Positions 6,895 through 61,139 of a stretch of 64,000 nt of DNA are shown here, piece by piece. Under the pieces are notes generated by a model. It saw only the letters and a list, made by a program, of their open reading frames with translations. It did no database searches and was not told the DNA's origin. Location: the sequence record PQ758395; one strand, 5' to 3'. The DNA comes from Escherichia phage phita32. The translations under genes were made by a program, and so were the position numbers. Position 1 is the first letter of the stretch. Each line of letters begins with the position of its first letter.

Positions 6895-6906
6895 TCAGGA
6901 GATAAA

Positions 6907-10283: not shown

Positions 10284-10292
10284 GGAGAAATC

Positions 10293-12038
10293 ATGGCGCA
10301 AGACATGACAAGCTTTGAGCAGGCGGTAGATCAAGTAATTGTTGATTCTGAACGTTTGCACCTGATTGTCAACGGTAACGCTGTGGATGAAGTTGTCGTA
10401 GAGGATGGGACCACCATCCCTACGGTACGAAAAGCCATGCTTGACACCCTTTATTTTAAAACGCCGCCGATCCCTTGGGCGTATGGTGCATCCACAACAG
10501 TTTTTAACCAGCTATATGAGTTTAAAGGGGACACAGGCCCTCAGTGGTGGTACGCTCCCGCAGCATCAAAATCTAACCCGGTTAGAATGCCAGCAGATCC
10601 TTCACAATCTCCAAACTGGAGATTATATACCGACTCTGCAGTAATGGCAAAATACTACGCAAAACTTAACAGCCCAAGGTTCGAAGGTGACCCGCGAGTA
10701 CCTACACCTCCAATGGACGATAAGTCAGAGTCCATAGCAAACACAGAGTTTGTTGTTGACTATGTTGATAGCATATTTAAAGCCATGGAGGGGATGAAAG
10801 TTACTGTAGGGTCTTTGGTGGTAAAAGGTCTTACAGAACTCGCTAACACCATAGTTGGAGGCACCCTTACCTTACATGGGCCTGTTAATGGAGCAGATTC
10901 TACTGCACGCTTCAGGAACCTAATCCTCACGGCAAATACTTCTACACTTACTTTTGCGTGGAGCGATCCTAAGCATGCAGACTGGAGAAGCACAGAGCTG
11001 CAACCTCATGAAGTGTCCACCCACAGGATTATAGCTGACACTATAACTTCTGGGAAACCAGTGGCTAATAATAACGATGTACATTTTGATGGTCTGGGTA
11101 ATAACTTTTTTGACTACGTGTACATTCGTGGTAATGCCATGAAGGCAGCAACCGAACCGACATTGCAGGTCGATGGGACCACCAGGGTTAAGAACCTAGA
11201 GGTGACAGGTACCGTTACAGGGATAACCTACTCTGTAGATGGCACCATGATCTACCCTAGCTATATTGAAAGCACTGGTGACGCATTGATAAATGGCGAT
11301 TTGGAGGTTGGCGGATCTGTAGTTATTCGAGGTACAGCCTCTATCCAAAACATAGCTCTGAATACCCTAAGAGTCAATGAGCGTGCAACTTTTGAAGGGG
11401 AAGGGCTTACAGCTAATAAAGGTACAATTACCGAGCTGACAACCACCACTTTAACTGCAACAACTGCAAACTCTGAAAACTGCAACGTTACCCGCAACTT
11501 GCGGGTAAATGGGGATGTTAGTTTAAACGCAGCAGGTACGGGTACCACCTCTGTTCACAACCTTGAAATATCTGGCACGGTGACTGGGTGGCTGCCAGAC
11601 TTCTCTAATGTCAACTTTGTCTGCAACGGCATTAACTCTAGTGGTAAGATAACCACCTCTCAAGAAATTGAGGCTGGTAAAACTATTACTGCCCCTACTT
11701 TCCACGCAGGGAAGGTAGATTTTGATCTAGAGGAGGTTGACGCGTCCAGTGGGACATGGACACCTAACGGGCAGGCCAGCATGTATGTTGTCCACGCGAA
11801 AGGGGATTTTACAATAGGACAGTGGCCTGGGACATCAGCGGAAGATAAACCTTATCCATTCACTGCAGTTATCTATGTCATTCAGGATGCTATAGGTCAC
11901 AACGTGACTTTGCACGATAAGTATGCTATCCTGTCGGCAACACCTGTTATTAACAACAAGGCTAACAGTGTTACCTTGCTGCAATTAACATATTGTGGTG
12001 TTGGTGATATCGTAGACGTAGTAATCGCACAACGTTAA
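10293..12038 (+). CDS. Tail fibre / structural protein (581 aa)
   Basis: AAGGAGA RBS; Thr/Gly/Asn-rich repetitive beta-type sequence typical of fibres; terminator follows. Confidence 0.4.
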   Translation: MAQDMTSFEQAVDQVIVDSERLHLIVNGNAVDEVVVEDGTTIPTVRKAMLDTLYFKTPPIPWAYGASTTVFNQLYEFKGDTGPQWWYAPAASKSNPVRMPADPSQSPNWRLYTDSAVMAKYYAKLNSPRFEGDPRVPTPPMDDKSESIANTEFVVDYVDSIFKAMEGMKVTVGSLVVKGLTELANTIVGGTLTLHGPVNGADSTARFRNLILTANTSTLTFAWSDPKHADWRSTELQPHEVSTHRIIADTITSGKPVANNNDVHFDGLGNNFFDYVYIRGNAMKAATEPTLQVDGTTRVKNLEVTGTVTGITYSVDGTMIYPSYIESTGDALINGDLEVGGSVVIRGTASIQNIALNTLRVNERATFEGEGLTANKGTITELTTTTLTATTANSENCNVTRNLRVNGDVSLNAAGTGTTSVHNLEISGTVTGWLPDFSNVNFVCNGINSSGKITTSQEIEAGKTITAPTFHAGKVDFDLEEVDASSGTWTPNGQASMYVVHAKGDFTIGQWPGTSAEDKPYPFTAVIYVIQDAIGHNVTLHDKYAILSATPVINNKANSVTLLQLTYCGVGDIVDVVIAQR

Positions 12039-38601: not shown

Positions 38602-41031
38602 ATGAGTATGTGGTCTTTCGATCTGGAGGCCTCCGGGCTTTTGGAAGATCTAGATCTTTATTATCACTGCGGTCTGTTTAAAGAGCTGAATAAGAACCGT
38701 TTTATGCTGTTCCTTCCTCTAAATGACCGCACACACTACTCCAAGGAGGATATAGAGAAGGCCAAGAACTTTATTCTGGCAAAGAAAACTCTTTATAAAG
38801 ATTTTGAAGTCCGCATAGCAGATTTTTCGGAGTTGGAAGGTTGGCTTACAGGCAATTCCGACTGGTCACCAACAGCTTTGAACTGCCATAACTGCTACAG
38901 TTATGACTTTATGCTGATGGAGAGATTATCCGGTATTCATTTTGATATGTTCCGTGATCCTAAATGCATGGGGACTATCAACGACCACCAGGTTAATCTG
39001 TTTGATACGTTGGCGATGAGCCGAATCTTGTGGCCTGATCGCCCTTTACCAAAAGGTTGTCCGGACTCTGTATTCAACCCGGTTACTAAGAAAATGCAGC
39101 CTGTTGGTCCTCACGGCCTTATGGCATGGGGCTACGCCCTTGGTAACCAGAAAGTTCAAATTGATGACTGGCGCGATCTTCCGTTGTGGAAGTATGTGGA
39201 TCGTGTATTCGAGGACGTTATCATCCAGGAGCTGCTCTGGAAAGAGCTGGTAGCGGAATCAAAAGGTGTATTCTACGGCAAATCTGACATGCAGAACTTT
39301 ATGTATGATCCTGCCAAAGAGAAGCCGAAAGGGTTCAAGAAGATCACCTGGAAGAACGCATTACGTCGAGGCATGCTGCAGCACTTCCTGATGGAGCTGC
39401 AGGCCCGTCAGGGTGTATACTTCGACATAGATGGAGCTATTGCTTTACGTGACCGTTGCGATGCGTGGATGAAAGAAATCGCTGATCGTGTTGAACCACA
39501 ACTACCTTTAAAAGAGCTGTCAATGTCTCAGCGGCCCAAGTTCCCTGAAAAGCCGTTTAACCAAGACGGGACAATCTCTAATAATGGTTGGAAATGGTTA
39601 AAAGATAAGCTTGGCTATCCTGTAGACATGAGCGCTTTAGAGTTCAAAGCCCCGCCTAAGCGAGCATTTACCTCTACAGGGGATGTCAGCAAGATGGGGA
39701 TAAAATGGTGTGAAGAGATGGGCTGCAAAGACCCCGATAAGATGGCTGATTTCTTGAGAGGCTATATTAAGGGTACCTCCACACCACAACCTTTACCTAA
39801 AGAGCTAATGGATCAGGCAATAAGTGATCTGCAGCAGAAGCGAATGCCTGACTGCAAGATACCTATGAAAATCGGCAATCAGGACGACATCAAGCGATAC
39901 CTAATCAGTGCTGGTTGGCTCCCAACAATGTGGAGAACTAAAGATGTAACTAAAGACAGCAAGAAGAAAGCTTTACCTGATGCAGATGTTGATGCACGAG
40001 TATATGCATACATGGACGAGCTTTTAGAGTCAGAGTATTGTGACCTGATTATCAACTTCTGGAACAAAACTGATGCTAAGTTTCAGACAACCGTGCACAA
40101 GTTCCGAAGCTTTCCTAACTCCGAAAGGATTAAAAAGGAAGTGTTCGGGAAAATACGTAGAAAAGCCAGGGCACTTATTACTTCTCCGCAACTGAAAGAT
40201 ACGTTTGGACACCTATGCCCAAATCTTGAAAAATTGAACGGAGAGATGGCTAAAGATATCGTCTTGTGGTTATCATTGCGAAACCGCAGATCGGTCCTTG
40301 ATCCAATCAAGGAGGATAAGGTTGATACTGGTCTTCTTAATCACCCACGTTTGAAGATTGACCATAAGCTTCCTGCTAAAAGCTCTGGATTAACAAACAC
40401 TTCCAGACAGAAACACAGTATTTGTGCAAACATGCCTAAACCATCTCCTAAAGTGGTTATGGGTAAAGAGATGCGTAGTCTGTGGGGTGTTCCTCCAGGA
40501 TACTTTGAGATCGGTATTGACGGGTCCAACTTAGAGCAGCTTATCGGGGCTTGGGGTGCCTTTGAGTTCGACAACGGCTTGTATTATGATGTTGTAAGTA
40601 ACGGAGACGCACACCAAAACAATGCTGAGGCATATACAAAAGTAGCAGGCAGAGAGGTGTCCCGTAACGACGGTAAACCTATCACGTATGGGGTTATGTA
40701 CGGGGCACAAAAAGATAAAGTTGCAGATATGCTGGACATCTCTCCAGAGTTGGGACAAAGGGTAATCGATGCACTCTGGGATGCCAACCCAGGTCTTAAG
40801 GGGCGCAAAGAGGATCTGGAGAAATTCTGGGAAGCAACAGGTAAGAAGTTTATCTACTCTTTTGATGGTCATGCTATCTGGACCAGATCTAAACACTCTT
40901 TACTTAATGCATACCAACAAAATGGCGGTGCATCGTTGTGTGACTTAGTTGGAATACTCATGCACCACCAGATGGTGAAGCGTGGGTGGTACGATGAAGG
41001 TGTTCGTCGTATTATTTATTACCATAAATAA
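38602..41031 (+). CDS. DNA polymerase, family A (with 3'-5' exonuclease domain)
   Basis: N-terminal FDLEASGL (exo motif I); polymerase motif A region IGIDGSNLEQL; motif B region KPITYGVMYGAQ; AAGGAGA RBS. Confidence 0.65.
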   Translation: MSMWSFDLEASGLLEDLDLYYHCGLFKELNKNRFMLFLPLNDRTHYSKEDIEKAKNFILAKKTLYKDFEVRIADFSELEGWLTGNSDWSPTALNCHNCYSYDFMLMERLSGIHFDMFRDPKCMGTINDHQVNLFDTLAMSRILWPDRPLPKGCPDSVFNPVTKKMQPVGPHGLMAWGYALGNQKVQIDDWRDLPLWKYVDRVFEDVIIQELLWKELVAESKGVFYGKSDMQNFMYDPAKEKPKGFKKITWKNALRRGMLQHFLMELQARQGVYFDIDGAIALRDRCDAWMKEIADRVEPQLPLKELSMSQRPKFPEKPFNQDGTISNNGWKWLKDKLGYPVDMSALEFKAPPKRAFTSTGDVSKMGIKWCEEMGCKDPDKMADFLRGYIKGTSTPQPLPKELMDQAISDLQQKRMPDCKIPMKIGNQDDIKRYLISAGWLPTMWRTKDVTKDSKKKALPDADVDARVYAYMDELLESEYCDLIINFWNKTDAKFQTTVHKFRSFPNSERIKKEVFGKIRRKARALITSPQLKDTFGHLCPNLEKLNGEMAKDIVLWLSLRNRRSVLDPIKEDKVDTGLLNHPRLKIDHKLPAKSSGLTNTSRQKHSICANMPKPSPKVVMGKEMRSLWGVPPGYFEIGIDGSNLEQLIGAWGAFEFDNGLYYDVVSNGDAHQNNAEAYTKVAGREVSRNDGKPITYGVMYGAQKDKVADMLDISPELGQRVIDALWDANPGLKGRKEDLEKFWEATGKKFIYSFDGHAIWTRSKHSLLNAYQQNGGASLCDLVGILMHHQMVKRGWYDEGVRRIIYYHK

Positions 41032-41298
41032 CATTGTGGCTTCATAGAGTAATCTATGTCGAATAACCTCTTTAACTGCGGGAAGCCTAAACCTTATGGC
41101 AAGGTAATCCGCAACGAAGCGCTCAAAAGAGCGAACGCTCAGAGGCCATTCCGAAAGGAAGTAGACCAGCAAGTGCGGTCGAAATGGGAGGATTCCTGTG
41201 GTTGCTTATTATAGGAATATGAGATGGTCCGATCCTACGTGAAAACGTATGGCTATGCACGTAATGGTGCGGGGTAGCTTAACGACCTACCTGAACTA

Positions 41299-50939: not shown

Positions 50940-51450
50940 AGAGATCAGGAGGATTTCTAAAATGGATTTCCTCCTTTTGATATTTTACCTACCAGGATAT
51001 TTTAAAATCCTTAGAAAATCAGAAAATGGATCGAAAACTAAAATGGATTTTTCAGAGCAGGCACGACGAGATGAACCACTCATCCTATCGTTTGCACCAT
51101 ATTCCAGACCACCATTACAGATTTCCCGCACATGCTCACATCCTTCTCCTAGAACTTCCCCCACTTACCCTTGACCTTTTATGGTAATGATATAACCACT
51201 ATCTTGAAGTTGCGGTGCAGCTTTCCAAGTACTCGATCTGTTTTTCGTTTCAAAGATTGAATTTTCTGAAAATTTTTCTCGATAAATTTCTCAGTACTCG
51301 ATCTGTTTTTCGTTTTCTGAATCGGATTTTCTGGAAATCGTTCCGGCTCTCGACCTGAAATTTTTGGGGACGAAATCGATTTTTCGTTTTCAGAAATGGA
51401 TTTTTAAAATTTCTATATGGGAATATTTTAGTGGATACTATTTTATAGGA
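50940..51450. repeat. Non-coding repeat region: AAATGGATTT motifs and about 3 degenerate ~60-bp direct repeats (AGTACTCGATCTGTTTTTCGTTT...)
   Basis: AGTACTCGATCTGTTTTTCGTTT occurs at about 51229 and 51292 with a degenerate third copy near 51350; (A)AAATGGATT(T) recurs at least four times between 50955 and 51400; no credible ORF. Confidence 0.6.
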
Positions 51451-51553
51451 AATTGTTACGGAGGGTAATTAGCGTGCTAATTAAATTTATTAAATGCGAG
51501 GAGTTCTAATTTAGAATTTTGAATGATAATCATTCTCGTTTGCAGAATAACGG

Positions 51554-51575
51554 GCAGGCCCGGTGATTGTCTCCC
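51554..51575 (+). repeat. Conserved element copy 1 (GCAGGCCCGGTGATTGTCTCCC)
   Basis: 22-nt core also present inverted at 61118..61139; 13-mer GTGATTGTCTCCC also at 51697. Confidence 0.6.
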
Positions 51576-51696
51576 GGCCCCTGTTGCCCCGGCTTGTTAT
51601 TATAGTATCACGCAGGACAAAGAAAGCAAGGATTTTTTGCATAAATTTTTAGACGATAATGATAACCGTTCTCATTCTATCTAGCGCCCATCCCCA

Positions 51697-51709
51697 GTGA
51701 TTGTCTCCC
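51697..51709 (+). repeat. Conserved element copy 2 (GTGATTGTCTCCC core in a paralogous ~100-nt unit)
   Basis: Units at about 51519-51620 and 51650-51760 share GATAAT(C/G)AT..GTTCTC..GTGATTGTCTCCC..TAT..CAC.AGG. Confidence 0.5.
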
Positions 51710-52058
51710 CCGTCACCAGGGCCTGCCGTCCTTTCGATAGGTATATTGTGCCACCTGGCGGGGCCGCTGTCAACACCTTTCAAAAAAAAAAAATTATAAC
51801 CAGGTGCGCCCACTGCCAGGACCTGGCGGGGCCAACCTGGCAGGTCCGCGCTATAAAGTGAACAGCTACAGAAGAGGTACAAAAATGAAAGGTAATGCTA
51901 CTCACCTGGAAAATAGTAATTGATGATACGGAAGCTATCGCCCTGGTCGAGAAGGCTAAAACTGAAGCACCGGAACATAAAGAAGAGTACGAAAAACGGT
52001 GGTGATCTGGCAGGGCGGCGGCAGGTGGATTCTATCATAAAAATAATTTAAAATAATT

Positions 52059-52811: not shown

Positions 52812-52839
52812 TTGACACGCCACAAAATTTAAGTAGACT
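52812..52839 (+). promoter_or_regulatory. Sigma70-like promoter (TTGACA-N16-TAGACT) with downstream 5' hairpin GGCGGGAAACATCCCGCC
   Basis: A-rich UP region, consensus -35, then conserved leader hairpin and GAGGAAAA RBS. Confidence 0.5.
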
Positions 52840-52883
52840 ATATACAAAGGCGGGAAACATCCCGCCAACACAGAGGAAAAGCT

Positions 52884-53279
52884 ATGAATAAGAACGTACG
52901 CCGCATCATGAACGAACTGGCAAACGATGAAAAAATTATTGACATGCATTTGGTCAACATTTGCCGCCGTTGTGTAACATACAACAACCGCGCCGCAAAA
53001 GCGCGTGAGATGAACGCAAAAGGCACCTTAAAGCCCTTTCAGGTGGTTGTAAAATCTATAACTAATGCAGCAGGCCAGGCGCATGATCACAACAACGAGA
53101 GCACTAATATTGATCCGTCTTACGTAATGAAACGGATCCGGACTTGCAAGAATAAAGAGCAGGTGTATAACGTCATAGATTGGCTTGATTCCATGGGCGA
53201 CGTGGTTTACAATAGATTTTCTGCAGCTATTGAAATTCAGTTAGACAGGTTGGACGGGAAAGTACTAAAAACTTACTGA
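52884..53279 (+). CDS. Early protein (131 aa)
   Basis: Promoter, leader hairpin and RBS all present. Confidence 0.45.
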   Translation: MNKNVRRIMNELANDEKIIDMHLVNICRRCVTYNNRAAKAREMNAKGTLKPFQVVVKSITNAAGQAHDHNNESTNIDPSYVMKRIRTCKNKEQVYNVIDWLDSMGDVVYNRFSAAIEIQLDRLDGKVLKTY

Positions 53280-53280
53280 G

Positions 53281-53326
53281 TTTATTTTTAGATGGCCTTG
53301 ACTCCAGGGCCATCAATAAAGTAAAC
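53281..53326 (+). repeat. 46-nt intergenic palindromic element, copy 1 (TTTATTTTTAGATGGCCTTGACTCCAGGGCCATCAATAAAGTAAAC)
   Basis: 7-bp stem GATGGCC/GGCCATC with TTGACT in the loop; near-identical copies at 53902 and 57619, variant at 54247. Confidence 0.65.
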
Positions 53327-53359
53327 TAATCCCAGTTAAGCGAAAAAGGAGGCTTGAAG

Positions 53360-53479
53360 ATGAGCACTACACGCCAGCACACAAAGGTAACTATTATCGT
53401 TTGCATCATTGGTTATATCCTGGCGCAAATGTTGATGGGTAGCGCCAACGGTGTCGCAAAATTTTTCTTAAACTTTTAA
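53360..53479 (+). CDS. Small hydrophobic peptide (39 aa)
   Basis: AAGGAGG RBS at 7-nt spacing; predicted single transmembrane helix; below the track cut-off. Confidence 0.3.
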   Translation: MSTTRQHTKVTIIVCIIGYILAQMLMGSANGVAKFFLNF

Positions 53480-53506
53480 TTGACAAGCTAACTTAGATCA
53501 GTATAC
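53479..53506 (+). promoter_or_regulatory. Sigma70 promoter (TTGACA-N16-TATACT) with leader hairpin
   Basis: Followed by CGGGAAAACTTCCC hairpin and AAGGAGA RBS. Confidence 0.55.
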
Positions 53507-53558
53507 TAAACACATAAACGGGAAAACTTCCCAGAACACACAAAAGGAGAAAAACACC

Positions 53559-53900
53559 ATGACTACTATGACCGCCGCAGAAAAAGCTATTCAGGTTGCA
53601 GCACTGAAAAAACAGATCGCAGACCTTGAGAACAAGATCGATAACTTTGAAATCGACGAGGACAAGTACGACGAAAACTATGATGAATGGTTAGACGAGA
53701 TCTACGGCGAAATTATGATCGGAAACATTTCTTTTCTTCCGTCGCGTATCCTCAAGGAGCTAGATCCTATCGCTTACCGCTGCGGATTTAGCGACTACAT
53801 CGACAGCCTGGATATTGAGGACGATGAAGAATACCAGGAATTACAGACAGAGTTGGAAGAAGCAAAAGAAGAGCTTGCAGAACTGGAAGAAAACGAGTAA
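53559..53900 (+). CDS. Early acidic coiled-coil protein (113 aa)
   Basis: Own promoter and RBS; strongly acidic (DE-rich) C-terminal half. Confidence 0.45.
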   Translation: MTTMTAAEKAIQVAALKKQIADLENKIDNFEIDEDKYDENYDEWLDEIYGEIMIGNISFLPSRILKELDPIAYRCGFSDYIDSLDIEDDEEYQELQTELEEAKEELAELEENE

Positions 53901-53901
53901 A

Positions 53902-53947
53902 TTTATTTTTAGATGGCCTTGACGCCAGGGCCATCGATAAAGTAAAC
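53902..53947 (+). repeat. 46-nt intergenic palindromic element, copy 2
   Basis: Two substitutions relative to copy 1 (TTGACG loop; CGATAAAG). Confidence 0.65.
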
Positions 53948-53989
53948 TTTATACTGTTAACACTGAACTAATACAGAGGAGTTAAAACC

Positions 53990-54235
53990 ATGGCAGCACT
54001 AATCACCAAATACTATGCACCGACCAACACCAAAAGCGCACGCATCTTGGTAAAAGGATTCGGACGTAAAAAGGTTTACACCTGGGATTATGCCTTAGAC
54101 ATGGAAGACAACTACACCAACGCGATGACAGATTTTATTAATGAACTAAATAAACAGATCTTAACCAATTATAAGGTGACCGACATCGCCTATGTTGGGG
54201 AAGGTGGGATCTGTTTTGTCGGTATTGTCAAATAA
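53990..54235 (+). CDS. Early small protein (81 aa)
   Basis: GAGGAG RBS. Confidence 0.45.
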   Translation: MAALITKYYAPTNTKSARILVKGFGRKKVYTWDYALDMEDNYTNAMTDFINELNKQILTNYKVTDIAYVGEGGICFVGIVK

Positions 54236-54246
54236 GCTGTTTTTCG

Positions 54247-54278
54247 GTGGCCCTGGTGGCAGGGCCATCTATAAAGAT
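54247..54278 (+). repeat. Variant of the palindromic intergenic element (TGGCCCTGGTGGCAGGGCCA + TATAAAG)
   Basis: Same GGCC..GGCC stem type and downstream ATAAAG, but no TTGAC in the loop. Confidence 0.45.
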
Positions 54279-54309
54279 AGTTTATTAACACCATGAAAGG
54301 AGAAAGTAC

Positions 54310-54663
54310 ATGATCAGTGGGGCTAGTTTTATTATTGGCGCTATTGCTACGGCTTTAATTGTAAACAAGATCCAGGATAAAAAGGAAAGAGGAAGTACCG
54401 ACCTTGCAGAATATCCATTTTGGACATTCAATGATAACGAAGATTATATTGTAAAGTATAAAAATAAAGAAGGTGACCAAGTAACACCGCGACCGATCCC
54501 GGCTTACAAGATGCAGGAAACACTATACCGCTTGGAGGCGGGAGGCGCAAAAATTGTGGACTTTTGGGGATACGATCACACAGATCAGGAAGTTATAAAG
54601 CGCCGTATCCGGGCTATTCAGGCCAATATTGAAGTTAGCAAGGGGGGAATATATGAAGATTAA
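54310..54663 (+). CDS. Early membrane-anchored protein (117 aa)
   Basis: AAGGAGA RBS; N-terminal hydrophobic helix. Confidence 0.45.
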   Translation: MISGASFIIGAIATALIVNKIQDKKERGSTDLAEYPFWTFNDNEDYIVKYKNKEGDQVTPRPIPAYKMQETLYRLEAGGAKIVDFWGYDHTDQEVIKRRIRAIQANIEVSKGGIYED

Positions 54664-54850
54664 TTTTGAGAAGATTGTAAAGCGATCTCATGATTCCGAA
54701 GAGCTGCCGGAACGCCGCCAGCGTAACAATAAACTGAATAAGCCAAAAAGATTTGGGAAGATCTGGCGGAATCATTATGATCGTAAATTGCCGGGCCTCC
54801 TTTTGGAACGTGAACGACAGGCGGAACGATACCGCCACAAAGGCAAATAA
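54653..54850 (+). CDS. Early small basic protein (about 65 aa)
   Basis: ATG at 54653 after GGGGGGA RBS; highly basic (R/K-rich); terminator follows. Confidence 0.35.
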   Translation: MKINFEKIVKRSHDSEELPERRQRNNKLNKPKRFGKIWRNHYDRKLPGLLLERERQAERYRHKGK

Positions 54851-54858
54851 CAACCAAC

Positions 54859-54884
54859 GCCCCGCTATTGTGCGGGGCTTTTTA
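54859..54884 (+). terminator. Intrinsic terminator (GCCCCGC-TATTGT-GCGGGGC + T-run)
   Basis: Perfect 7-bp GC stem then TTTTTATTT. Confidence 0.65.
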
Positions 54885-55009
54885 TTTCTATCCCGCCGAT
54901 AGCGCCCCTGGTTGGCCCCACAACGCCCTAAAGGCCCCCTACCTATGCAATCTCCTTTCTTAACCTGAAAACATCGTCAAAGGCCGTTTTAAAGCGTTAA
55001 AAATATTGT

Positions 55010-55037
55010 TGACATCTAAAATATTCTAGATATACTA
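55010..55037 (+). promoter_or_regulatory. Sigma70 promoter (TTGACA-N16-TATACT)
   Basis: Near-consensus boxes. Confidence 0.55.
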
Positions 55038-55071
55038 ATCACATCAAAGCGAGAAGTAAGGAGTAAACGCC

Positions 55072-55341
55072 ATGCGTAAATTGAAAAATTTTGATAAAGT
55101 CGATGTTGTCCTAAATAATTTTTACTACTGCAATAATAAAGCCGTTTGGTGGCGCGATAATTCCACCGATAAGGTTAAGGCGCGCTTTCTCCAAGGGTAC
55201 TGGCAAGGCCGTCCAGTGATTAAAATCCTGGGGCAATTGGTAGCGTTTAAAAATTGCCGCCGTGTTGACGACGTTGAAGAGATTTTAAACATTTTGCGCC
55301 ACAATAATTTAAAAATAGTGTTGACAAGTAAATATCGATAA
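55072..55341 (+). CDS. Early small protein (89 aa)
   Basis: AAGGAG RBS plus own promoter. Confidence 0.45.
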   Translation: MRKLKNFDKVDVVLNNFYYCNNKAVWWRDNSTDKVKARFLQGYWQGRPVIKILGQLVAFKNCRRVDDVEEILNILRHNNLKIVLTSKYR

Positions 55342-55348
55342 GTATACT
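55321..55348 (+). promoter_or_regulatory. Sigma70 promoter (TTGACA-N16-TATACT) with leader hairpin GGCGGGAAAACTTCCCGCC
   Basis: Promoter overlaps the end of the upstream ORF; conserved leader hairpin at about 55359-55377. Confidence 0.6.
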
Positions 55349-55405
55349 TAAACACACAGGCGGGAAAACTTCCCGCCACTAACAAAGAAAATAGGAGAAA
55401 ATATC

Positions 55406-56029
55406 ATGACCACCGTTAACATTACTACAGGTTACAATTTATCTTTCGACGTGCTGACCGACGAACAAAAAGAAAAAGCCGTTGAAATGGTCCGCGAAAG
55501 AGAAGAACACAGCGGGGATAACTTTTTTGCAGAAAGTGTAATTGAATACTATAAAGAGTATGTTTTTCCAGAGTACGGGCTTGAAGATACAGAGGTACAT
55601 TGGTCCGGCTTTTGGTGCCAGGGTGACGGCGCGTCAATCAGTGCTGAAAACGTGGACTTAGAAAAATTCTTGCGTAAAGTCAAGTCTCTGACTAAATTCC
55701 GCTCAATTCGCCACTTGTTCGGCACAATGCATGACGGGGAATTATCAGCCAGTGTTGAACGTGACACATACAGCCGCTATAGTCACGAAAACACTGTAAA
55801 CGGATACATCGATACTACTTGGCTAGACCTAACCGCCAAACAAGAAAACAAAGTGGAAGATTTGGAAGAGCTGATCACCGAGACGGTACGGGAGTTATCC
55901 CGCAAGGTTTACGTAGACTTGGAAGCGGCCTATTTGGAGCAATTCACATCTGAAAACTTGATCGGCCTTATCGAGGCCAATGATTGGCGGTTTGATGTCG
56001 ATGAATATGGTGAGATGACTTTTTCATAA
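55406..56029 (+). CDS. Early protein (207 aa)
   Basis: AGGAGAAAA RBS; acidic protein. Confidence 0.45.
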   Translation: MTTVNITTGYNLSFDVLTDEQKEKAVEMVREREEHSGDNFFAESVIEYYKEYVFPEYGLEDTEVHWSGFWCQGDGASISAENVDLEKFLRKVKSLTKFRSIRHLFGTMHDGELSASVERDTYSRYSHENTVNGYIDTTWLDLTAKQENKVEDLEELITETVRELSRKVYVDLEAAYLEQFTSENLIGLIEANDWRFDVDEYGEMTFS

Positions 56030-56037
56030 ATAAAGTG

Positions 56038-56065
56038 TTGCAATAACCTAAAAACCTGTTATATT
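56038..56065 (+). promoter_or_regulatory. Sigma70-like promoter (TTGCAA-N16-TATATT) with leader hairpin GGGGCAAGACGTTTGCCCC
   Basis: Promoter, leader hairpin and AAGAGGAAAA RBS. Confidence 0.5.
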
Positions 56066-56118
56066 AAAACTCAAGGGGGCAAGACGTTTGCCCCACACAA
56101 AACAAAGAGGAAAACATC

Positions 56119-56499
56119 ATGAAAAACACTACTAAAGCTATTGACACCGTTATGTTTAACCTGGTTACCTTTCGCGAGGATATGAAAGATCTTCCACGTG
56201 AAACAGTGTGCGACCATATCGAAAACTATCGCAAACTAATCAAAGAGTTGCCTTTAAAACGTGACCAGTATGCGGCTAACGCTATGCTTAACGCTATGAT
56301 CAAAAAGATGATCCAGTGTGATTTAACTCTGGCCTATGATTATGCAGGTGGTCGTTTTGCAGTATACAATCGGCCCGTGCCTGGTATGAGCACCACCGAA
56401 GAATTGCACGCGCTCAATCTAAAACAAGACGTGTGGGATAGTATGCCCCGCGTGGTGGTGTGGGCAGAAAGCGGAAAGATTTACGGCGATAATTTTTAA
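56119..56499 (+). CDS. Early protein (126 aa)
   Basis: Own promoter and RBS; terminator follows. Confidence 0.45.
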   Translation: MKNTTKAIDTVMFNLVTFREDMKDLPRETVCDHIENYRKLIKELPLKRDQYAANAMLNAMIKKMIQCDLTLAYDYAGGRFAVYNRPVPGMSTTEELHALNLKQDVWDSMPRVVVWAESGKIYGDNF

Positions 56500-56508
56500 T
56501 CAGGTAAC

Positions 56509-56536
56509 AGGCGGCGGCATATTTGCCGCCTTATTG
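56509..56536 (+). terminator. Intrinsic terminator (GGCGGC-ATATTT-GCCGCC + T-rich)
   Basis: GC stem followed by TTATTGTT. Confidence 0.5.
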
Positions 56537-56566
56537 TTAAACAGAACTGTAAAAGAGGTACATAGA

Positions 56567-56926
56567 ATGGAATTTATTATTCTGACTGTATTAGTTGCCT
56601 TGTTCAACGCCTGGATCGCTGGCAAGGTAGGCAGATCCGCTTTCTTATGGTTTATTATATCTATTTTCCTGGGAGTGGTTGCAACTATCATATTGGTTAT
56701 CCTTGCAATTGTTGACAAAGGTAATAATAGAAAGGGTAAAGTATTTTCCGACCTGTATGACGCACAAACGTTCGTCAACGCCTATTATGGTGATCTCCCG
56801 GTATCCCTACGCTGCAGCCTGGCACAACAGGTTTTTGATGAAGCTAAAACCAGAGATCAAGCCCATGAGATATGTTTAACTGAGGCGGATCGCCTATTTG
56901 AGAGGAATAGAAAATATGTGGGCTAA
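56567..56926 (+). CDS. Early membrane protein (about 119 aa)
   Basis: ATG after AAAGAGG RBS; two predicted transmembrane helices. Confidence 0.4.
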   Translation: MEFIILTVLVALFNAWIAGKVGRSAFLWFIISIFLGVVATIILVILAIVDKGNNRKGKVFSDLYDAQTFVNAYYGDLPVSLRCSLAQQVFDEAKTRDQAHEICLTEADRLFERNRKYVG

Positions 56927-57161
56927 CCGTTTAAATAACTCCGCGCTAATTAATCCCTTTAGTGAAGATTTGAAGCCAGCCGCCTGGCGTGATGGATTCA
57001 ATACCGAAGGATTTATTTTCAGGCCTGATCTTGAGGAATTTTATAACAATGGATCGAACAACGACAGAGATAATTTTTCTTGTGATGTGCGTAGCGATGG
57101 TACTCCTGGGGGCCATTGCAAACCACATCACTACTACCAGGGGGAAAGGGGGAGACGATGA
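56916..57161 (+). CDS. Early small protein (about 81 aa)
   Basis: ATG at 56916 after GAGAGGAA RBS; 11-nt overlap with the upstream gene. Confidence 0.35.
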   Translation: MWANRLNNSALINPFSEDLKPAAWRDGFNTEGFIFRPDLEEFYNNGSNNDRDNFSCDVRSDGTPGGHCKPHHYYQGERGRR

Positions 57162-57277
57162 CAACCAAGGATAAGCCCCGCACCGATAAGGCGCGCCGGG
57201 TTATGGTATGGCTTGAGATCATCGCCCTTGAAATATTGCTAGGCGTAGGGATGTACTTTATCGCTGTAAGTAACTAA
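57158..57277 (+). CDS. Small membrane peptide (39 aa)
   Basis: ATGA start/stop overlap with the upstream gene; GGGGGAGA RBS; hydrophobic C-terminal half; terminator follows. Confidence 0.3.
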   Translation: MTTKDKPRTDKARRVMVWLEIIALEILLGVGMYFIAVSN

Positions 57278-57282
57278 GAACG

Positions 57283-57310
57283 GCCCCCGATCATGGGGGC
57301 TTATCTTTTT
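57283..57310 (+). terminator. Intrinsic terminator (GCCCCCGATCATGGGGGC + T-run)
   Basis: Stem-loop followed by TTATCTTTTT. Confidence 0.6.
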
Positions 57311-57332
57311 AAAAAATTTCCCTTCCAGGGTG

Positions 57333-57360
57333 TTGCAATCCGGTCCGCAATATGGATAAT
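57333..57360 (+). promoter_or_regulatory. Sigma70-like promoter (TTGCAA-N16-GATAAT) with leader hairpin GGGGAGCTAATCCCC
   Basis: Shares CAATATGGATAATA with the promoter at 58149. Confidence 0.5.
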
Positions 57361-57416
57361 AACAATCAACGGGGAGCTAATCCCCACCAACACAAAAACC
57401 AGAAAGGAGAAACAAA

Positions 57417-57617
57417 ATGAGCAACAATATCCGCGTTATTAACTTCAAAAAAGAAGAAAAAATTGCCGTGCTGATTGACGGTCAAGAAATCTTCAAGGGC
57501 TATTATGAAGATCATCAAACGGCGATTAGTATCACTCGCGTGATCGGTTACCATAATTTCTACCCCCAAGGCGCTGAGGCAGCGGTTAAACGAATCAAAG
57601 AGATTGTAGGCCTGTAA
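57417..57617 (+). CDS. Early small protein (66 aa)
   Basis: AAAGGAGAAA RBS. Confidence 0.45.
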   Translation: MSNNIRVINFKKEEKIAVLIDGQEIFKGYYEDHQTAISITRVIGYHNFYPQGAEAAVKRIKEIVGL

Positions 57618-57618
57618 A

Positions 57619-57664
57619 TTTATTTTTAGATGGCCTTGACTCCAGGGCCATCAATAAAGTAAAT
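57619..57664 (+). repeat. 46-nt intergenic palindromic element, copy 3
   Basis: Hairpin and TTGACT loop identical to copy 1. Confidence 0.65.
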
Positions 57665-57707
57665 TTTAATCGTGATAAAATAATCAGTGCAAAAAGGAGT
57701 AATGATC

Positions 57708-58007
57708 ATGTTCATACCCGCCAATAATCTTTATTTCTTTGATGGTCAAATCGTAGACGGTGTGGAGGTGGAGATCACCGGGTGCCCTGGTGGTCAGGTT
57801 ATGACTTTCCGGAATAATGCCTTTGATGATTCTCATATCGTTATGAGAATGGAAGTTAGTAAGCTAGATGATAAGAAAACATTGATTGACTATTCCGTCA
57901 AAGATCATCCAGACTACCACATGATCTATGGTGATTTGTGCATTGTTGACCGTGACAAGGTGGGCGGCATTGTGATCGCTATTGTGAACGATGTTTTCTC
58001 TGTATAG
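57708..58007 (+). CDS. Early protein (about 99 aa)
   Basis: ATG at 57708 after AAGGAG RBS (the track GTG at 57687 contains the RBS). Confidence 0.4.
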   Translation: MFIPANNLYFFDGQIVDGVEVEITGCPGGQVMTFRNNAFDDSHIVMRMEVSKLDDKKTLIDYSVKDHPDYHMIYGDLCIVDRDKVGGIVIAIVNDVFSV

Positions 58008-58065
58008 TTCCGGTAAATGATGCAAAATAAGGCCCCTAGCAGGGCCTGCAGCGATATAATCACAT

Positions 58066-58099
58066 AAAGGCCATGCAACCGCATGGCCTTTATTATTTT
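58066..58099 (+). terminator. Intrinsic terminator (AAAGGCCATGC-AACC-GCATGGCCTTT + T-run)
   Basis: 11-bp stem followed by ATTATTTT; preceded by a second hairpin AGGCCCCTAGCAGGGCCT at about 58030. Confidence 0.6.
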
Positions 58100-58148
58100 G
58101 GCGTTACAGCGGCCCCCAAGGTGCTTAAAAAATTTTTTAAAGAAGTAC

Positions 58149-58176
58149 TTGCATCAAGCCCTACAATATGGATAAT
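58149..58176 (+). promoter_or_regulatory. Sigma70-like promoter (TTGCAT-N16-GATAAT) with leader hairpin GGGGG-GCGG-CCCCC
   Basis: Paralogous to the promoter at 57333. Confidence 0.5.
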
Positions 58177-58232
58177 AGGACGTGTCGGGGGGCGGCCCCC
58201 AATCATTAACCGGATAGATAGGAGTTAAAATC

Positions 58233-58517
58233 ATGGCTATTGTTACCGTTGGCGATGTAGTAGAAATGGAAGCAAAATACTTAAAAGCGGGTATGCATAT
58301 CCTACGGAATGATCAAGAGTTACTATTAACGATGGTCGACTATAATCCCGGCCAGGATTATCCAAGCATCGACTACTTTTTTGAGTATGTTGATGAAGAG
58401 TTGAAAGAGGATGAGGCCTATTGCGGTGAGTTCTGCAACTTCTTTTGTCCTGATGAGGTTGTAAAGGTTATTTATCAACCTGGCGTAGCTTTCCCGCTGC
58501 ACGCTATCAATAAATAA
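58233..58517 (+). CDS. Early protein (94 aa)
   Basis: AGGAG RBS; followed by a GGGGCC-GAAAA-GGCCCC hairpin. Confidence 0.45.
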   Translation: MAIVTVGDVVEMEAKYLKAGMHILRNDQELLLTMVDYNPGQDYPSIDYFFEYVDEELKEDEAYCGEFCNFFCPDEVVKVIYQPGVAFPLHAINK

Positions 58518-58582
58518 ACCTGGCGGGGCCGAAAAGGCCCCTACAGCATAAAATCATAAAAAATAAAGAGAGGCAAATCATC

Positions 58583-58816
58583 ATGATGGAACAAATTAAA
58601 CGCGCCGAGGCTATTAATGGCAATGTGATCTATTTTGTTAGCAATAACGAAAAAGGCGTACCATATGCAGCGGTAATAGTGCAGCCTGACGGCGATTATT
58701 GGTTTACTGTATACGGATCTTATTCTTTCGGGCGTCCGGTGCATGATAGAATTTTAAAAGTAGCTAATCCAACCGGGAAGAATATCACAGCAGAAAAATT
58801 TTTTGAAAATAGTTGA
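58583..58816 (+). CDS. Early small protein (77 aa)
   Basis: AAAGAGAGG RBS. Confidence 0.45.
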   Translation: MMEQIKRAEAINGNVIYFVSNNEKGVPYAAVIVQPDGDYWFTVYGSYSFGRPVHDRILKVANPTGKNITAEKFFENS

Positions 58817-58843
58817 CATGACCGTATAAGACTGTAGTATATA
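58813..58843 (+). promoter_or_regulatory. Sigma70-like promoter (TTGACA ... TATATA) with leader hairpin GGGGGCAAGCCCC
   Basis: -35 overlaps the upstream stop codon; followed by leader hairpin and AAAGAGGA RBS. Confidence 0.5.
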
Positions 58844-58889
58844 AATCAAAGGGGGCAAGCCCCACCAACCACAAAGAGGATAAAAAATC

Positions 58890-59069
58890 ATGGCTATTAT
58901 TGCAAAGACCGAGATTTTAGGTTTAGATTCTATTCTCCTGGCATACGAGGAAGCTATAGAAATGTATGTGGTTTCCTATGGTGAGTATATCCGTGAATAT
59001 GAATCTATTGATCTAGCTTTTGAATGTTATATTCACCAGGTAAATAAGGCATATGATGATTATCGTTAA
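58890..59069 (+). CDS. Early small protein (59 aa)
   Basis: Just below the track cut-off; has promoter, leader hairpin and RBS. Confidence 0.4.
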   Translation: MAIIAKTEILGLDSILLAYEEAIEMYVVSYGEYIREYESIDLAFECYIHQVNKAYDDYR

Positions 59070-59075
59070 AATAGT

Positions 59076-59103
59076 TTGACAACAGTCAACAATCTGGTAA
59101 AGT
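59076..59103 (+). promoter_or_regulatory. Sigma70-like promoter (TTGACA-N16-TAAAGT) with leader hairpin GCGGGAATACTTCCCGC
   Basis: Promoter followed by leader hairpin. Confidence 0.45.
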
Positions 59104-59151
59104 GTACTACATAGCGCGGGAATACTTCCCGCCATTAATGAGGGTAATTTA

Positions 59152-59298
59152 ATGAAAACTTTCAACGCAACGGCCTCGACAATTGGTTATATTATTACAG
59201 TACAAGCCGTGGATCTGGTAGCAGCAGCAAACAAGATTAAAAAGATGATTCCGCCAGGCAGTGAATTTTCCGTTTGGGAAGTAAAAAATAAATCTTGA
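59152..59298 (+). CDS. Early small protein (48 aa)
   Basis: GAGGG RBS; below the track cut-off. Confidence 0.35.
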   Translation: MKTFNATASTIGYIITVQAVDLVAAANKIKKMIPPGSEFSVWEVKNKS

Positions 59299-59322
59299 CG
59301 ATAATTTGTTATCTGATAGAAT
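59295..59322 (+). promoter_or_regulatory. Sigma70-like promoter (TTGACG-N16-TAGAAT)
   Basis: Overlaps the upstream stop; followed by a GC-rich leader hairpin and GAGGAAAA RBS. Confidence 0.5.
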
Positions 59323-59382
59323 GTATTTCGTAGGGCGGGGAAATAAGGCAACGCCCCACATCAACCGGAAGAGGAAAACAAG

Positions 59383-59619
59383 ATGAGTATTGCGACAATA
59401 TTAACCGCTGTTAAAACCGCTGAACGTTCCGGCCTGCAAGTTGAGATTATAGATCAACCAGGTGGCGATCTCCTTGTCCAAGTTTACCCGCCGAAAGTAG
59501 GGGATGATTATTATTGGTGTTATTCTGATACGTTCGAACAAGTAGACACGAAAGCAATAACCGCCTTTATTTTAAAAGCCGTTGAAGAAAATAACTTGCA
59601 CAATAACGTCAATCAATAA
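59383..59619 (+). CDS. Early small protein (78 aa)
   Basis: GAGGAAAA RBS. Confidence 0.45.
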   Translation: MSIATILTAVKTAERSGLQVEIIDQPGGDLLVQVYPPKVGDDYYWCYSDTFEQVDTKAITAFILKAVEENNLHNNVNQ

Positions 59620-59673
59620 ACCATAAGCGAAGTGGTAACGCCCCATTAAACGCAATAGAAAGAGGATAACTAC

Positions 59674-59778
59674 ATGAAACAGAAATTAATTGATGCGGTG
59701 ATCCTGGTTATTGCCCTAGGTATTGGCCTGATTGCAACCATGGCTAATATGATCTTGTCTTCCAACGGTATCGGATAA
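59674..59778 (+). CDS. Small hydrophobic peptide (34 aa)
   Basis: AAAGAGGATAA RBS; predicted single transmembrane helix; leader paralogous to that of the gene at 60095. Confidence 0.35.
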   Translation: MKQKLIDAVILVIALGIGLIATMANMILSSNGIG

Positions 59779-59787
59779 GGTGGGCAA

Positions 59788-60003
59788 ATGATCACCAACA
59801 AAACAGGCAAAACAGAATTTTTACGCAACTTGCAGATCGGCAAGCCTGAGATCTGGTATTGCACTAAAACACCACGTGACGAAATGAAAGACTTCACCGC
59901 CACGCTGCAACGGGTGAAGATATCTATCACACAGAAAAAGGCCTTACTAGTGGTGGAAGGTGAGATCCCCCAAACCGTTGTTATAGTTGAGCGTACAGCA
60001 TAG
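59788..60003 (+). CDS. Early small protein (71 aa)
   Basis: AAGGTGGG RBS. Confidence 0.4.
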   Translation: MITNKTGKTEFLRNLQIGKPEIWYCTKTPRDEMKDFTATLQRVKISITQKKALLVVEGEIPQTVVIVERTA

Positions 60004-60094
60004 TTTAATTTATACAGATACCTGAAAATTAACCAACAAAGCATAAACAGGCGGTTACCGCCGCCTTAAACGTAGCAGAAAGAGGATAGACACA

Positions 60095-60379
60095 ATGAAA
60101 AAGATGATCGCAGTGGTTTCCCTGGTTGTTGGACTTAATGCGCCTGTAATGGCTAAAGAGCTGGCAAAAGAGGTTGATCTAACGGATATCCATGCCGTCA
60201 ATCAAATCGGGGTTACTTATCGCTTATGCCTTGCCGCTAAAACTTTTAATGACGGCACAACAGAGTACTACGGATTCGAGGGTATCCGGTGCGGTGAGCT
60301 TGCTCGCGACCTTAAGGAAGATCCAGACCTGGAAGATCTGCCCATCACCGTAAACGGTAAAGCTTACGTAGACCGTTAA
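60095..60379 (+). CDS. Small secreted/periplasmic protein (94 aa, signal peptide)
   Basis: N-terminal MKKMIAVVSLVVGLNAPVMA signal-peptide-like sequence; AAAGAGGATAG RBS. Confidence 0.45.
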   Translation: MKKMIAVVSLVVGLNAPVMAKELAKEVDLTDIHAVNQIGVTYRLCLAAKTFNDGTTEYYGFEGIRCGELARDLKEDPDLEDLPITVNGKAYVDR

Positions 60380-60381
60380 CC

Positions 60382-60522
60382 ATGAGAAAGATAATCATCA
60401 CCTTGGGGATTGTGGTAGCAATATTGGCGCTCTTTCCCCTTATGGTTAGATATGTGCTGATACGTGCTGTTCTAGTGGTCAGCGATCTGGTGTTATATAT
60501 ATATATTAACTTACTGTTTTAG
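60382..60522 (+). CDS. Small hydrophobic peptide (46 aa)
   Basis: ATG 2 nt after the upstream stop; very hydrophobic; no clear RBS. Confidence 0.2.
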   Translation: MRKIIITLGIVVAILALFPLMVRYVLIRAVLVVSDLVLYIYINLLF

Positions 60523-60718
60523 GTGCGATAATGACCACTGATGAAGCTGTAAAAGTGTTGGCGGTATTGAGATAACATAATCAGACAAAAGTTATAAACG
60601 ATCCTGATTATGTTGACTCAAAGCGTGAAGATGAGACATTGACCGCAATAGGGATTATTCAAGAATTGCTAAAGCGCATGACAGAGAAAAACCGACCTGA
60701 CTACATAGGGGGTAAAAT

Positions 60719-61030
60719 ATGATCGCTATTACGCCAACCGTTTTAGATTGGTATCGGCAACGCATAGCGCTTCCGCTGGCTATCTTCAAAGATGCGGAAG
60801 CAAAACAACGCCGGATCTCAATACATGAGATCATCAACCTTAACGCTGGAGGCACACCATACCGTCCAGGACCTGGCCGTGAGATGGACAATACGTTAGC
60901 GATCCTGAAGATACGCCGTAAACGGTCCTCCCTTACGCTGGACTCATTACACACAATGCAGTCTCCGTTCCAGGTGACCGGGAAACGGATCGCCAGGTCC
61001 TGGACAAAGGCCAATGATCGGACCGTATAA
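60719..61030 (+). CDS. Hypothetical basic protein (103 aa)
   Basis: GGGGG RBS; preferred over the overlapping antisense 179-aa ORF because it is co-oriented with the array. Confidence 0.3.
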   Translation: MIAITPTVLDWYRQRIALPLAIFKDAEAKQRRISIHEIINLNAGGTPYRPGPGREMDNTLAILKIRRKRSSLTLDSLHTMQSPFQVTGKRIARSWTKANDRTV

Positions 61031-61060
61031 ATAAAAAGTGTTTTGGTACTGATTTTGGGG

Positions 61061-61089
61061 TTGACTTGTTCGGCCCCTTTTGCTATTCT
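61061..61089 (+). promoter_or_regulatory. Sigma70-like promoter (TTGACT-N17-TATTCT), -35 within a GGGG...CCCC hairpin
   Basis: Reads through the inverted copy of the 22-nt element. Confidence 0.4.
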
Positions 61090-61117
61090 TATTAAACGGG
61101 CGGCACTTGGGAACAGG

Positions 61118-61139
61118 GGGAGACAATCACCGGGCCTGC
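61118..61139 (-). repeat. Conserved element copy 3, inverted (GGGAGACAATCACCGGGCCTGC on the + strand)
   Basis: Exact reverse complement of 51554..51575. Confidence 0.6.

Follow-up and report, generated by a model that had tools for sequence, protein, structure and literature searches.

The stretch of 64,000 nucleotides (nt) of Escherichia phage phita32 analyzed here (record PQ758395), which we call the window, contains an intergenic element of 46 nt. It is present in three near-identical copies and one variant, all of them just after the stop codons of small genes. We favor, at roughly even confidence and by analogy with the early sites of phage T7, the interpretation that this element is a signal of the ribonuclease III (RNase III) type, which processes or stabilizes the messenger RNA (mRNA) between cistrons. 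It would also mark the boundary of gene cassettes, with a possible weak promoter in the same DNA. In addition, the near-identical direct copies are crossover points, where single-gene cassettes are deleted, inserted or swapped by homologous recombination.

Copies of the element

The original prediction described three near-identical copies at 53281, 53902 and 57619, and a variant near 54247 which keeps the stem and ATAAAG, without TTGAC. Both descriptions are correct. A pattern search finds the 24 nt core GATGGCCTTGAC(T/G)CCAGGGCCATC at 53291, 53912 and 57629, against 0.00 matches in shuffled sequence. All three cores have a T-rich 5' flank and (A/G)ATAAAGTAAA as 3' flank, giving near-identical 46 nt units. 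The variant retains GG(C/T)C...GGCCATC and ATAAAG, it lacks TTGAC, and the sequence of its lower stem differs from the main copies. The four sites are the following:

Copy 1: 53279-53327 (core 53281-53326), + strand; the hairpin starts 0-2 nt after the TGA (53277-53279) of a gene of 131 amino acids (aa).
Copy 2: 53897-53952 (core 53902-53947), + strand; after the TAA (53898-53900) of a 113 aa gene; -22.6 kcal/mol.
Variant: 54231-54286 (core 54246-54269), + strand; follows the TAA (54233-54235) of an 81 aa gene.
Copy 3: 57616-57666 (core 57619-57664), + strand; after the TAA (57615-57617) of a 66 aa gene; -23.1 kcal/mol.

The distance from the stop codon of the preceding + strand gene to the start of each copy is 1-5 nt, and 30-45 nt separate the end of the copy from the next ribosome-binding site. 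All copies in the window lie within 4.4 kb, and a repeat search gives the element as the largest family of direct repeats between 47 and 64 kb. A covariance model trained on 23 copies detects only these four sites in the window; its weaker matches on the other strand only reflect the palindrome. A sliding fold across the whole window shows no further intergenic hairpin of this type. A possible fifth copy at 62568 has been rejected, since it has no complementary arm and represents a chance similarity.

RNA structure

When the RNA folds of the copies are compared, as proposed with the original prediction, all four share a two-tier hairpin in the + strand. The lower stem has about 10 bp, is AU-rich, and pairs a U-run with an A-rich tract, including one U·G pair. 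In the main copies it is followed by an internal loop of 2 nt on the 5' side and 3 nt on the 3' side. The upper stem has 10 bp, is GC-rich, also includes one U·G pair, and is capped by a tetraloop. Minimum free energies on the + strand range from -22.6 to -26.4 kcal/mol, and the z-scores from -5.2 to -6.6 (-25.1 kcal/mol and -6.6 for copy 1). The A·C mismatches which replace the G·U pairs on the - strand limit its energies to -15 to -17 kcal/mol. The fold of the variant has a lower stem of 9-14 bp, an internal loop of 1-2 x 3 nt, an upper stem of 10 bp and a tetraloop, with energies of -26 to -31 kcal/mol. The hairpin persists when 150 nt are included on each side (346 nt context): pair probabilities are about 1.0 in the upper stem and 0.6-1.0 in the lower stem, and 0.7-1.0 in the case of copy 1.

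An alignment was made of 22 distinct copies, taken from the window, from seven GenBank phages and from two IMG/VR contigs. Standard pairs are found in 98% of the alignment cells, and the upper helix is paired in 100% of them. Changes in the upper helix are one-sided and always compatible with wobble pairing (A-U/G·U, C-G/U·G, U·G/C-G, G-C/G·U). In the lower helix, four pairs present two-sided changes, for example C-G to U-A or G-C to A-U. As a control, the 3' partners were slid by 1-3 columns: pairing falls to 35-57% and only 0-1 compensatory pairs remain. The positions which vary freely are the last two of the loop and the first nucleotide on the 3' side of the internal loop. The variant, found once in each of 118 records, evolves faster (84-99% identity among the 118 genomes), retains the two-tier fold and shows C-G/U-A covariation between genomes.

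This pattern favors an RNA structure over a DNA palindrome. The feature under selection is the sense-strand hairpin, as its G·U pairs, the substitutions limited to wobble pairs and the compensatory changes indicate. Among the possibilities raised by the original prediction, an RNA signal is thus the one which fits best; that the signal acts in processing is suggested by the comparison with T7 given below.

A protein-binding palindrome had also been proposed. Such a site in the DNA, an operator bound by a protein of the phage or of the host which regulates the overlapping promoter or directs recombination, would agree with the 10 bp inverted arms flanking TTGAC, with the near invariance of the 46 nt in about 120 genomes, and with a speculation of Arbiol et al. 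on a recombination protein which binds stem-loops (PMC2839356). The details of the sequence do not support it. The arms are asymmetric in every main copy, with T against C at arm position 8, and all substitutions in the stem are tolerated as G·U pairs in the sense RNA only, since they give A·C mismatches on the other strand. The variant alters the sequence of the half-sites yet keeps the pairing, and the loop, which would be the center of the palindrome, is variable. We consider a DNA site improbable.

Comparison with RNase III sites

The early RNase III sites of T7 were folded with the same program as the element. The fold of R0.5 has a lower stem of 9 bp, two unpaired nucleotides, an upper stem of 9-12 bp with a 5 nt loop, and three unpaired nucleotides before the 9 bp lower stem closes. 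R1 has a lower stem of 5+4 bp, again two and three unpaired nucleotides, and an upper stem of 9 bp with a tetraloop. R0.3 and R1.1 present the same 2x3 internal loop around an upper stem of 9-10 bp. The energies of the T7 sites are -18 to -23 kcal/mol, with a lower stem of about 9 bp and loops of 4-5 nt. In dot-bracket notation, the structure of the element is essentially that of R0.5.

The cleavage positions in T7, reported by Dunn & Studier 1983 as 890, 1468, 3138 and 5887, coincide with the last nucleotide of the 3 nt 3' loop in each predicted T7 structure. The annotation tables of the T7 records do not show RNase III site features.

Substrates of RNase III in E. coli typically have two helical turns, and internal loops limit the cleavage to one strand, leaving a 3' hairpin which protects against exonucleases (PMC1540722, PMC6212723). 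The element has 10 + 10 bp plus the internal loop on the transcribed strand, close to a helix of two turns (roughly 20-22 bp). An asymmetric internal loop separates the stems (main copies, 2x3; variant, 1-2x3). The location is intercistronic within a polycistronic mRNA, between the stop codon and the next ribosome-binding site.

Base-pair determinants were judged by the rules of Pertzev & Nicholson 2006, with the pairs numbered outward from the loop, as is done for µR1.1. Pair 2 is U-A and pair 3 is U·G, both shared with R1.1. This U·G falls in the distal box, at position 2, where such a pair is stringently preferred. At position 2 of the proximal box, where G-C is the strong antideterminant, the element has A-U, which is favorable.

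By analogy with T7, the predicted cuts would be located as follows:

Copy 1: scissile region 53315-53318, + strand, on the 3' side of the internal loop, cut after AAU (53317/53318).
Copy 2: 53938/53939, + strand.
Variant: 54272/54273, + strand.
Copy 3: 57655/57656, + strand.

The element may be compared with the early sites of T7 (R0.3, R0.5, R1, R1.1, R1.3). Both are families of similar sense-strand hairpins between the cistrons of early polycistronic mRNA, with two-tier geometry and comparable energies, and in both the stems are conserved within the family and the loops vary. On the other hand, the element shows no sequence homology with the T7 sites, it agrees only in part with the optimum of the distal and proximal boxes, it overlaps a promoter-like motif, and its cleavage is only predicted. 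Also, its phage is a large myovirus which uses the host RNA polymerase throughout.

A working model may be outlined in these terms. Host RNase III would recognize the helix of two turns and cut on the 3' side of the internal loop, as it does at the T7 early sites. The upstream message would keep a protective 3' hairpin, and the downstream cistron would be separated from it. In three of the copies, a weak sigma-70 promoter in the same DNA could restart transcription for the next gene. The repeated sequence, at which crossovers demonstrably take place, would also serve as a linker for recombination, like the promoter-early stem-loops (PeSLs) of T4-type phages.

Terminators and promoters

The statement that the T-run lies upstream of the stem, so that the element is not a canonical terminator, is confirmed. 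On neither strand is there a T-run after the stem. The sequence which comes next is (A/G/U)AUAAAG, and the upstream U-run pairs with the A-rich tract downstream. The consensus terminator scan does not list the element sites on either strand, and the terminator annotations of EdH4, Alma and rV5 omit them. An intrinsic terminator can therefore be rejected. The element resembles one in having a GC-rich stem-loop straight after a stop codon. It differs in that terminators have a U-rich tract within 0-2 nt of the stem, and the element has its T-run upstream and an A-rich tract downstream, paired with each other.

A promoter-like motif is found in the three main copies:

Copy 1: 53298-53327, + strand, TTGACT-18-TAAACT, 9/12 match with A2 and T6 present.
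Copy 2: 53919-53948, + strand, TTGACG-18-TAAACT, same motif.
Copy 3: 57636-57665, + strand, TTGACT-18-TAAATT, same motif.

The -35 region is located within the loop and the upper end of the upper stem, and the -10 region belongs to the lower stem, in its 3' arm. The spacing to the -10 region, described as poor in the original prediction, is less so than stated there: the spacer has 18 bp, and A2 and T6 are present in the 9/12 match.

Some comparisons agree with a promoter at this place. Calls of PhagePromoter in phage Gotham overlap two of the orthologous sites of the element. Another example is KKE7M, a phage of the genus Justusliebigvirus which carries a copy of the element in an exchanged cassette. 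Its TAAATT is followed, after 10-11 nt, by a GC-rich hairpin in the 5' untranslated region (5'UTR). About 20 strong TTGACA promoters in these phages have a 5'UTR hairpin at the same distance, 9-13 nt. The relatives of KKE7M without the cassette (PD114, Antha) present TTGCAA-16-TAAACT at that place, in the same register to the same hairpin. This promoter has AATAAAGTAAAC in common with the element, which is homologous to the resident -10 region. In rV5, the -10 region of the predicted promoter P194 is AAGTAAACT.

Judging from these sequences, it is plausible that the 3' part of the element represents a genuine -10 region. That the DNA of the three copies acts as a weak sigma-70-like promoter (TTGACN-18-TAAAYT) is supported only indirectly. 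The suggestion of a regulated promoter is helped by the comparison of KKE7M with PD114. The 9/12 match is weak by itself, and the variant has no -35.

A second family of repeats, more abundant than the element, is found in these genomes. It consists of a strong TTGACA-16/17-TAnnnT promoter, a GC-rich hairpin 9-13 nt further on, for example GGCGGGAAAACTTCCCGCC, and a ribosome-binding site. Nearly the same hairpin sequence is found in Vequintavirus and Justusliebigvirus. In the window, this family is located at 52812-52866, 53480-53533, 55321-55377, 56038-56094, 57333-57391 and 59076-59135. It is also found throughout the KKE7M genome and throughout L130. Units on the - strand were mistaken for terminators by the consensus scan. 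The members of this family look like modules formed by a promoter and a 5'UTR stabilizer, themselves similar to PeSLs.

Recombination at the element

The original prediction considered that the element might be recombinogenic. This is borne out by two kinds of natural deletions with junctions inside the element, and by a cassette swap between subfamilies. The segments involved are the following:

Cassette A, between copies 1 and 2: 53327-53901, + strand; absent from magaca, ECP32 and the IMG/VR contig L126.
Contents of cassette A, + strand: open reading frame (ORF) of 39 aa, 53361-53479; strong promoter, 53480-53507; 5'UTR hairpin, 53519-53533; 113 aa gene, 53559-53900.
Cassette B, between copy 2 and the variant: 53948-54230, + strand; 81 aa gene, 53990-54235; absent from phage 241Ecol014PP.
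Segment in common with the phi92-like phage KKE7M: 53479-53952, + strand, 93.5% identity; strong promoter, 113 aa gene and copy 2.

In the first case, the two phages magaca and ECP32 and the contig L126 lack window positions 53328-53901. They have a single hybrid element, flanked as copy 1 on the left and as copy 2 on the right; the period of the deletion is 621 bp. In the second case, 241Ecol014PP also has a single hybrid, whose left part is of the copy 2 type (TTGAC included) and whose right flank is that of the variant. The deletion has 334 bp, the 81 aa gene is lost, and the crossover took place within or beside the shared CAGGGCCATCNATAAAG.

The third case is KKE7M, which belongs to a different subfamily, Stephanstirmvirinae. 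Here the segment stands in place of a different gene of its relatives. On the left, the crossover took place within TTGACAAG.TAACT, a stretch of shared promoter sequence; on the right, it took place in the element, within AATAAAGTAAA. No junction between copies 1 and 3, or between copies 2 and 3, is found in 120 records.

Other regions of the window are also similar to KKE7M. Patches with 86-92% identity are found at 58884-59071 (4277-4464 in KKE7M) and 59723-60001 (10114-10393 in KKE7M). The first of them corresponds exactly to one ORF of 59 aa, with promoter regions on both sides. These sequences suggest further exchange of single-gene cassettes between the two subfamilies.

The deletions in rV5_ev146, a laboratory-evolved rV5, were considered as possible recombination at the element and rejected: their junctions are located at microhomologies of about 10 bp elsewhere (5470-5479 and 6885-6897 in rV5_ev146). 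Copies 1 and 3 are both missing from this phage, since it lacks the sequences corresponding to window positions 52873-53371 (with copy 1) and 54799-61124 (with copy 3). Therefore, about 6.8 kb of the early region are dispensable in culture.

A more ambitious reading would see in the hairpin a dedicated cassette boundary, and not just a passive patch of homology, and would assign three jobs to a single sequence of 46 nt: an RNase III-type site which insulates the upstream cistron, a promoter with its -35 region in the apex of the hairpin, and a site recognized for recombination. The recombination would possibly depend on recognition of a cruciform or hairpin by a phage recombination protein, or on mini-circles. 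The element would then actively drive the exchange of single-gene cassettes, even between Vequintavirinae and Stephanstirmvirinae. We think that this combination is improbable, slightly more so than a DNA binding site.

Comparison with promoter-early stem-loops

PeSLs were described by Arbiol et al. 2010 (PMC2839356) and Comeau et al. 2014 (PMC4122927). In their layout, the stop codon is located in an AT-rich tract, a stem-loop with G·T pairs overlaps a sigma-70-like promoter, and a ribosome-binding site and an ATG follow (PMC2839356). Recombination between copies gives rise to ORF insertions or deletions (indels), replacements and mini-circles in T4-type phages (PMC2839356, PMC4122927).

The element has much in common with PeSLs. 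It is intergenic, with the same order of stop codon, AT-rich tract, ribosome-binding site and ATG of small early ORFs. It includes a sigma-70-like motif overlapped by a stem-loop with G·T pairs, and its copies are crossover points for indels and replacements of ORFs, with cassettes carried between phages. The differences are also clear. The lineage is Vequintavirus, not T4-type, and there are 3+1 copies per genome, compared with the dozens of PeSLs across hyperplastic regions. The promoter motif of the element is weak (9/12, 18 bp spacer) and is absent from one copy. Its hairpin is a long two-tier helix without a G-run and C-run and without terminator features. None of the papers searched links PeSLs with rV5, Vequintavirinae or phi92.

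The element might be nothing else than a composite of the PeSL type, in which an attenuator, a pause site or a passive barrier to 3' exonucleases is combined with a promoter which restarts transcription, and RNase III takes no part. We consider this possible, though rather unlikely. The layout agrees with the published description (PMC2839356), the indels and replacements at the copies fit the behavior of PeSLs, and the promoter-like hexamers are present, in register in the case of KKE7M. The structure is more difficult to explain in this way. No U-tract follows the stem, and the lower stem is conserved, covaries and makes up a helix of two turns, which neither a terminator nor an exonuclease block needs. 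In addition, the variant keeps the whole hairpin without a -35, and the promoter match is weak.

Evaluation of the interpretation

Several observations weigh against an RNase III-type signal which is also a cassette boundary and a weak promoter. The sequence determinants of RNase III are matched only in part, although natural T7 sites also deviate from the optimum. Position 1 of the distal box is C-G, and positions 1 and 3 of the proximal box are U-A and G-C; all three are off the µR1.1 optimum. The variant has C-G at position 2 of the distal box, where U·G is preferred. The covariation was obtained from closely related genomes and represents few independent events. Our literature search found no transcriptome of rV5-like phages (Vequintavirus). 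As for the promoter, a 9/12 score is at the background frequency of an AT-rich region (24 sites, compared with 14.6±4 in shuffled sequences), and the variant has no -35. Recombination at repeats of 46 bp may be a passive by-product and not a function.

Another observation comes from phage Gotham. Its positions 986-1027 are the orthologue of window 53281-53326, and GGGCC is missing there from the 3' arm of copy 1. This deletion of 5 nt destroys the upper stem and reduces the spacing between -35 and -10 to 13. It is a natural knockout, therefore at least that copy is dispensable.

The damaged copy in Gotham would agree with the element being a relic without function, scars of past insertions or duplications of cassettes kept only through the close kinship of the genomes. 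The small number of copies (3+1 per genome) would also agree with a relic, as would the level of conservation of the element between genomes, which is about that of the adjoining coding sequence. Nevertheless, the stems are invariant or have changed by pairing-preserving substitutions only, with loop positions free, and the faster-evolving variant keeps its pairing through double changes. All four copies are also located at the same distance from a stop codon. A relic seems as improbable to us as a DNA binding site, and an RNase III-type signal is still the interpretation we favor.

Distribution among phages and bacteria

A 50-mer of the element matches 120 phage records, in most cases with three copies in each genome. 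KKE7M is the only one of these records which is not a Vequintavirus. The search of the genome and of related phages proposed with the original prediction gives, in addition to the four sites in the window, the same copies at orthologous places in about 120 related genomes, with the 46 nt nearly invariant. In the IMG/VR and JGI/ENA metagenomes, the element only appears on Vequintavirus-like contigs. It was not found in 5,426 complete E. coli genomes or in the GTDB genomes (one per species). Rfam 15 has no match at the element, at the gathering score or at E<=1; the only match, to SurC, is a chance hit below the threshold (28.7 bits, gathering score 80). Of the 33 promoters and 20 terminators given in the rV5 genome paper, not one is located at the element sites.

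Records named as Campylobacter phages are a peculiar case. There are 17 of them (MG0656xx), 92% identical to E. coli Vequintavirus genomes and classified as Vequintavirus. One record which we inspected is marked UNVERIFIED, and the host label is doubtful.

This distribution bears on another suggestion of the original prediction, a small mobile element. A self-mobile miniature element, similar to miniature inverted-repeat transposable elements (MITEs) or to repetitive extragenic palindromic (REP) sequences, or linked to a homing enzyme, would spread by its own mechanism. The near-identical copies in unrelated flanks and the copy in a different phage subfamily would be explained in this way. Outside this phage group, and KKE7M aside, there are no copies in the 5,426 E. 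coli genomes, in GTDB or in other phages, and no target-site duplication, empty site or associated enzyme has been seen. Copy number is fixed at orthologous sites, and crossovers on both sides, within promoter sequence which is shared, account for the transfer to KKE7M. We consider a self-mobile element the least probable of all the alternatives.

The REP sequences of enterobacteria, and the bacterial interspersed mosaic elements (BIMEs), are also repeated imperfect palindromes in intercistronic or 3' untranslated regions. These palindromes can stabilize the upstream mRNA. The element differs from them: it has no sequence similarity with REP or BIME, it is absent from the genomes of E. coli and other bacteria, no RAYT transposase is involved, and its copy number is very low. 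REP and MITE-like families have dispersed copies, target duplications and a transposase, and the positions of the element are fixed and orthologous. A REP-like repeat derived from the host was therefore rejected, as there is no match in complete E. coli genomes or in GTDB genomes.

Genomic setting

According to its sequence, the window is part of the genome of a Vequintavirus, an rV5-like E. coli myovirus. Region 52800-58200 matches 123 phage records with 80-95% identity, nearly all of them Vequintavirus. The genes around the element are small, mostly hypothetical, and all on the + strand. No close homologues of the flanking early proteins were found outside the genus Vequintavirus. The early region is organized in short operons with strong sigma-70-type promoters and canonical terminators; the consensus scan finds terminators with U-tracts at 54859, 56509, 57282 and 58064. 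The copies of the element are located inside an early operon, on the coding strand, between the strong promoter and the canonical terminator of the same operon. Two of the neighboring genes are:

Upstream early gene: 52884-53279, + strand, 131 aa, ends at copy 1.
Gene downstream of copy 3: 57709-58007, + strand, followed by the canonical terminator at 58064-58093.

Two other features of the window were detected. A group I intron (Rfam RF00028) is found at 41016-41251 on the + strand, with 63.1 bits (gathering score 50) and a match to the full-length model; presumably, it interrupts a phage gene. Three tandem-like repeats of about 47-57 nt, spaced 65-74 nt, are found in 51219-51404 and 51541-51856. 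This stretch has no long ORFs, and very stable GC-rich hairpins (as low as -29.6 kcal/mol) lie beside the repeats. These repeats may correspond to the "non-coding" box of the rV5 map, and are a candidate for an origin or a regulatory region.

Significance

Phages related to rV5 are widely used as candidates for biocontrol and therapy, and the regulation of their early genes is essentially uncharacterized. The element involves no new principle. Its main value lies in exact, testable coordinates and in the shuffling of cassettes mediated by a linker outside the T4-type phages. If the copies are RNase III sites, mRNA processing in the style of T7 would also take place in a large myovirus which depends on the host RNA polymerase. 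The evidence of recombination extends the idea of PeSLs, regulatory linkers for the modular shuffling of genes, beyond T4-type phages and across subfamilies. The small early "ORFan" genes bounded by the element should be expected to be gained and lost between therapeutic phages which are otherwise near-identical.

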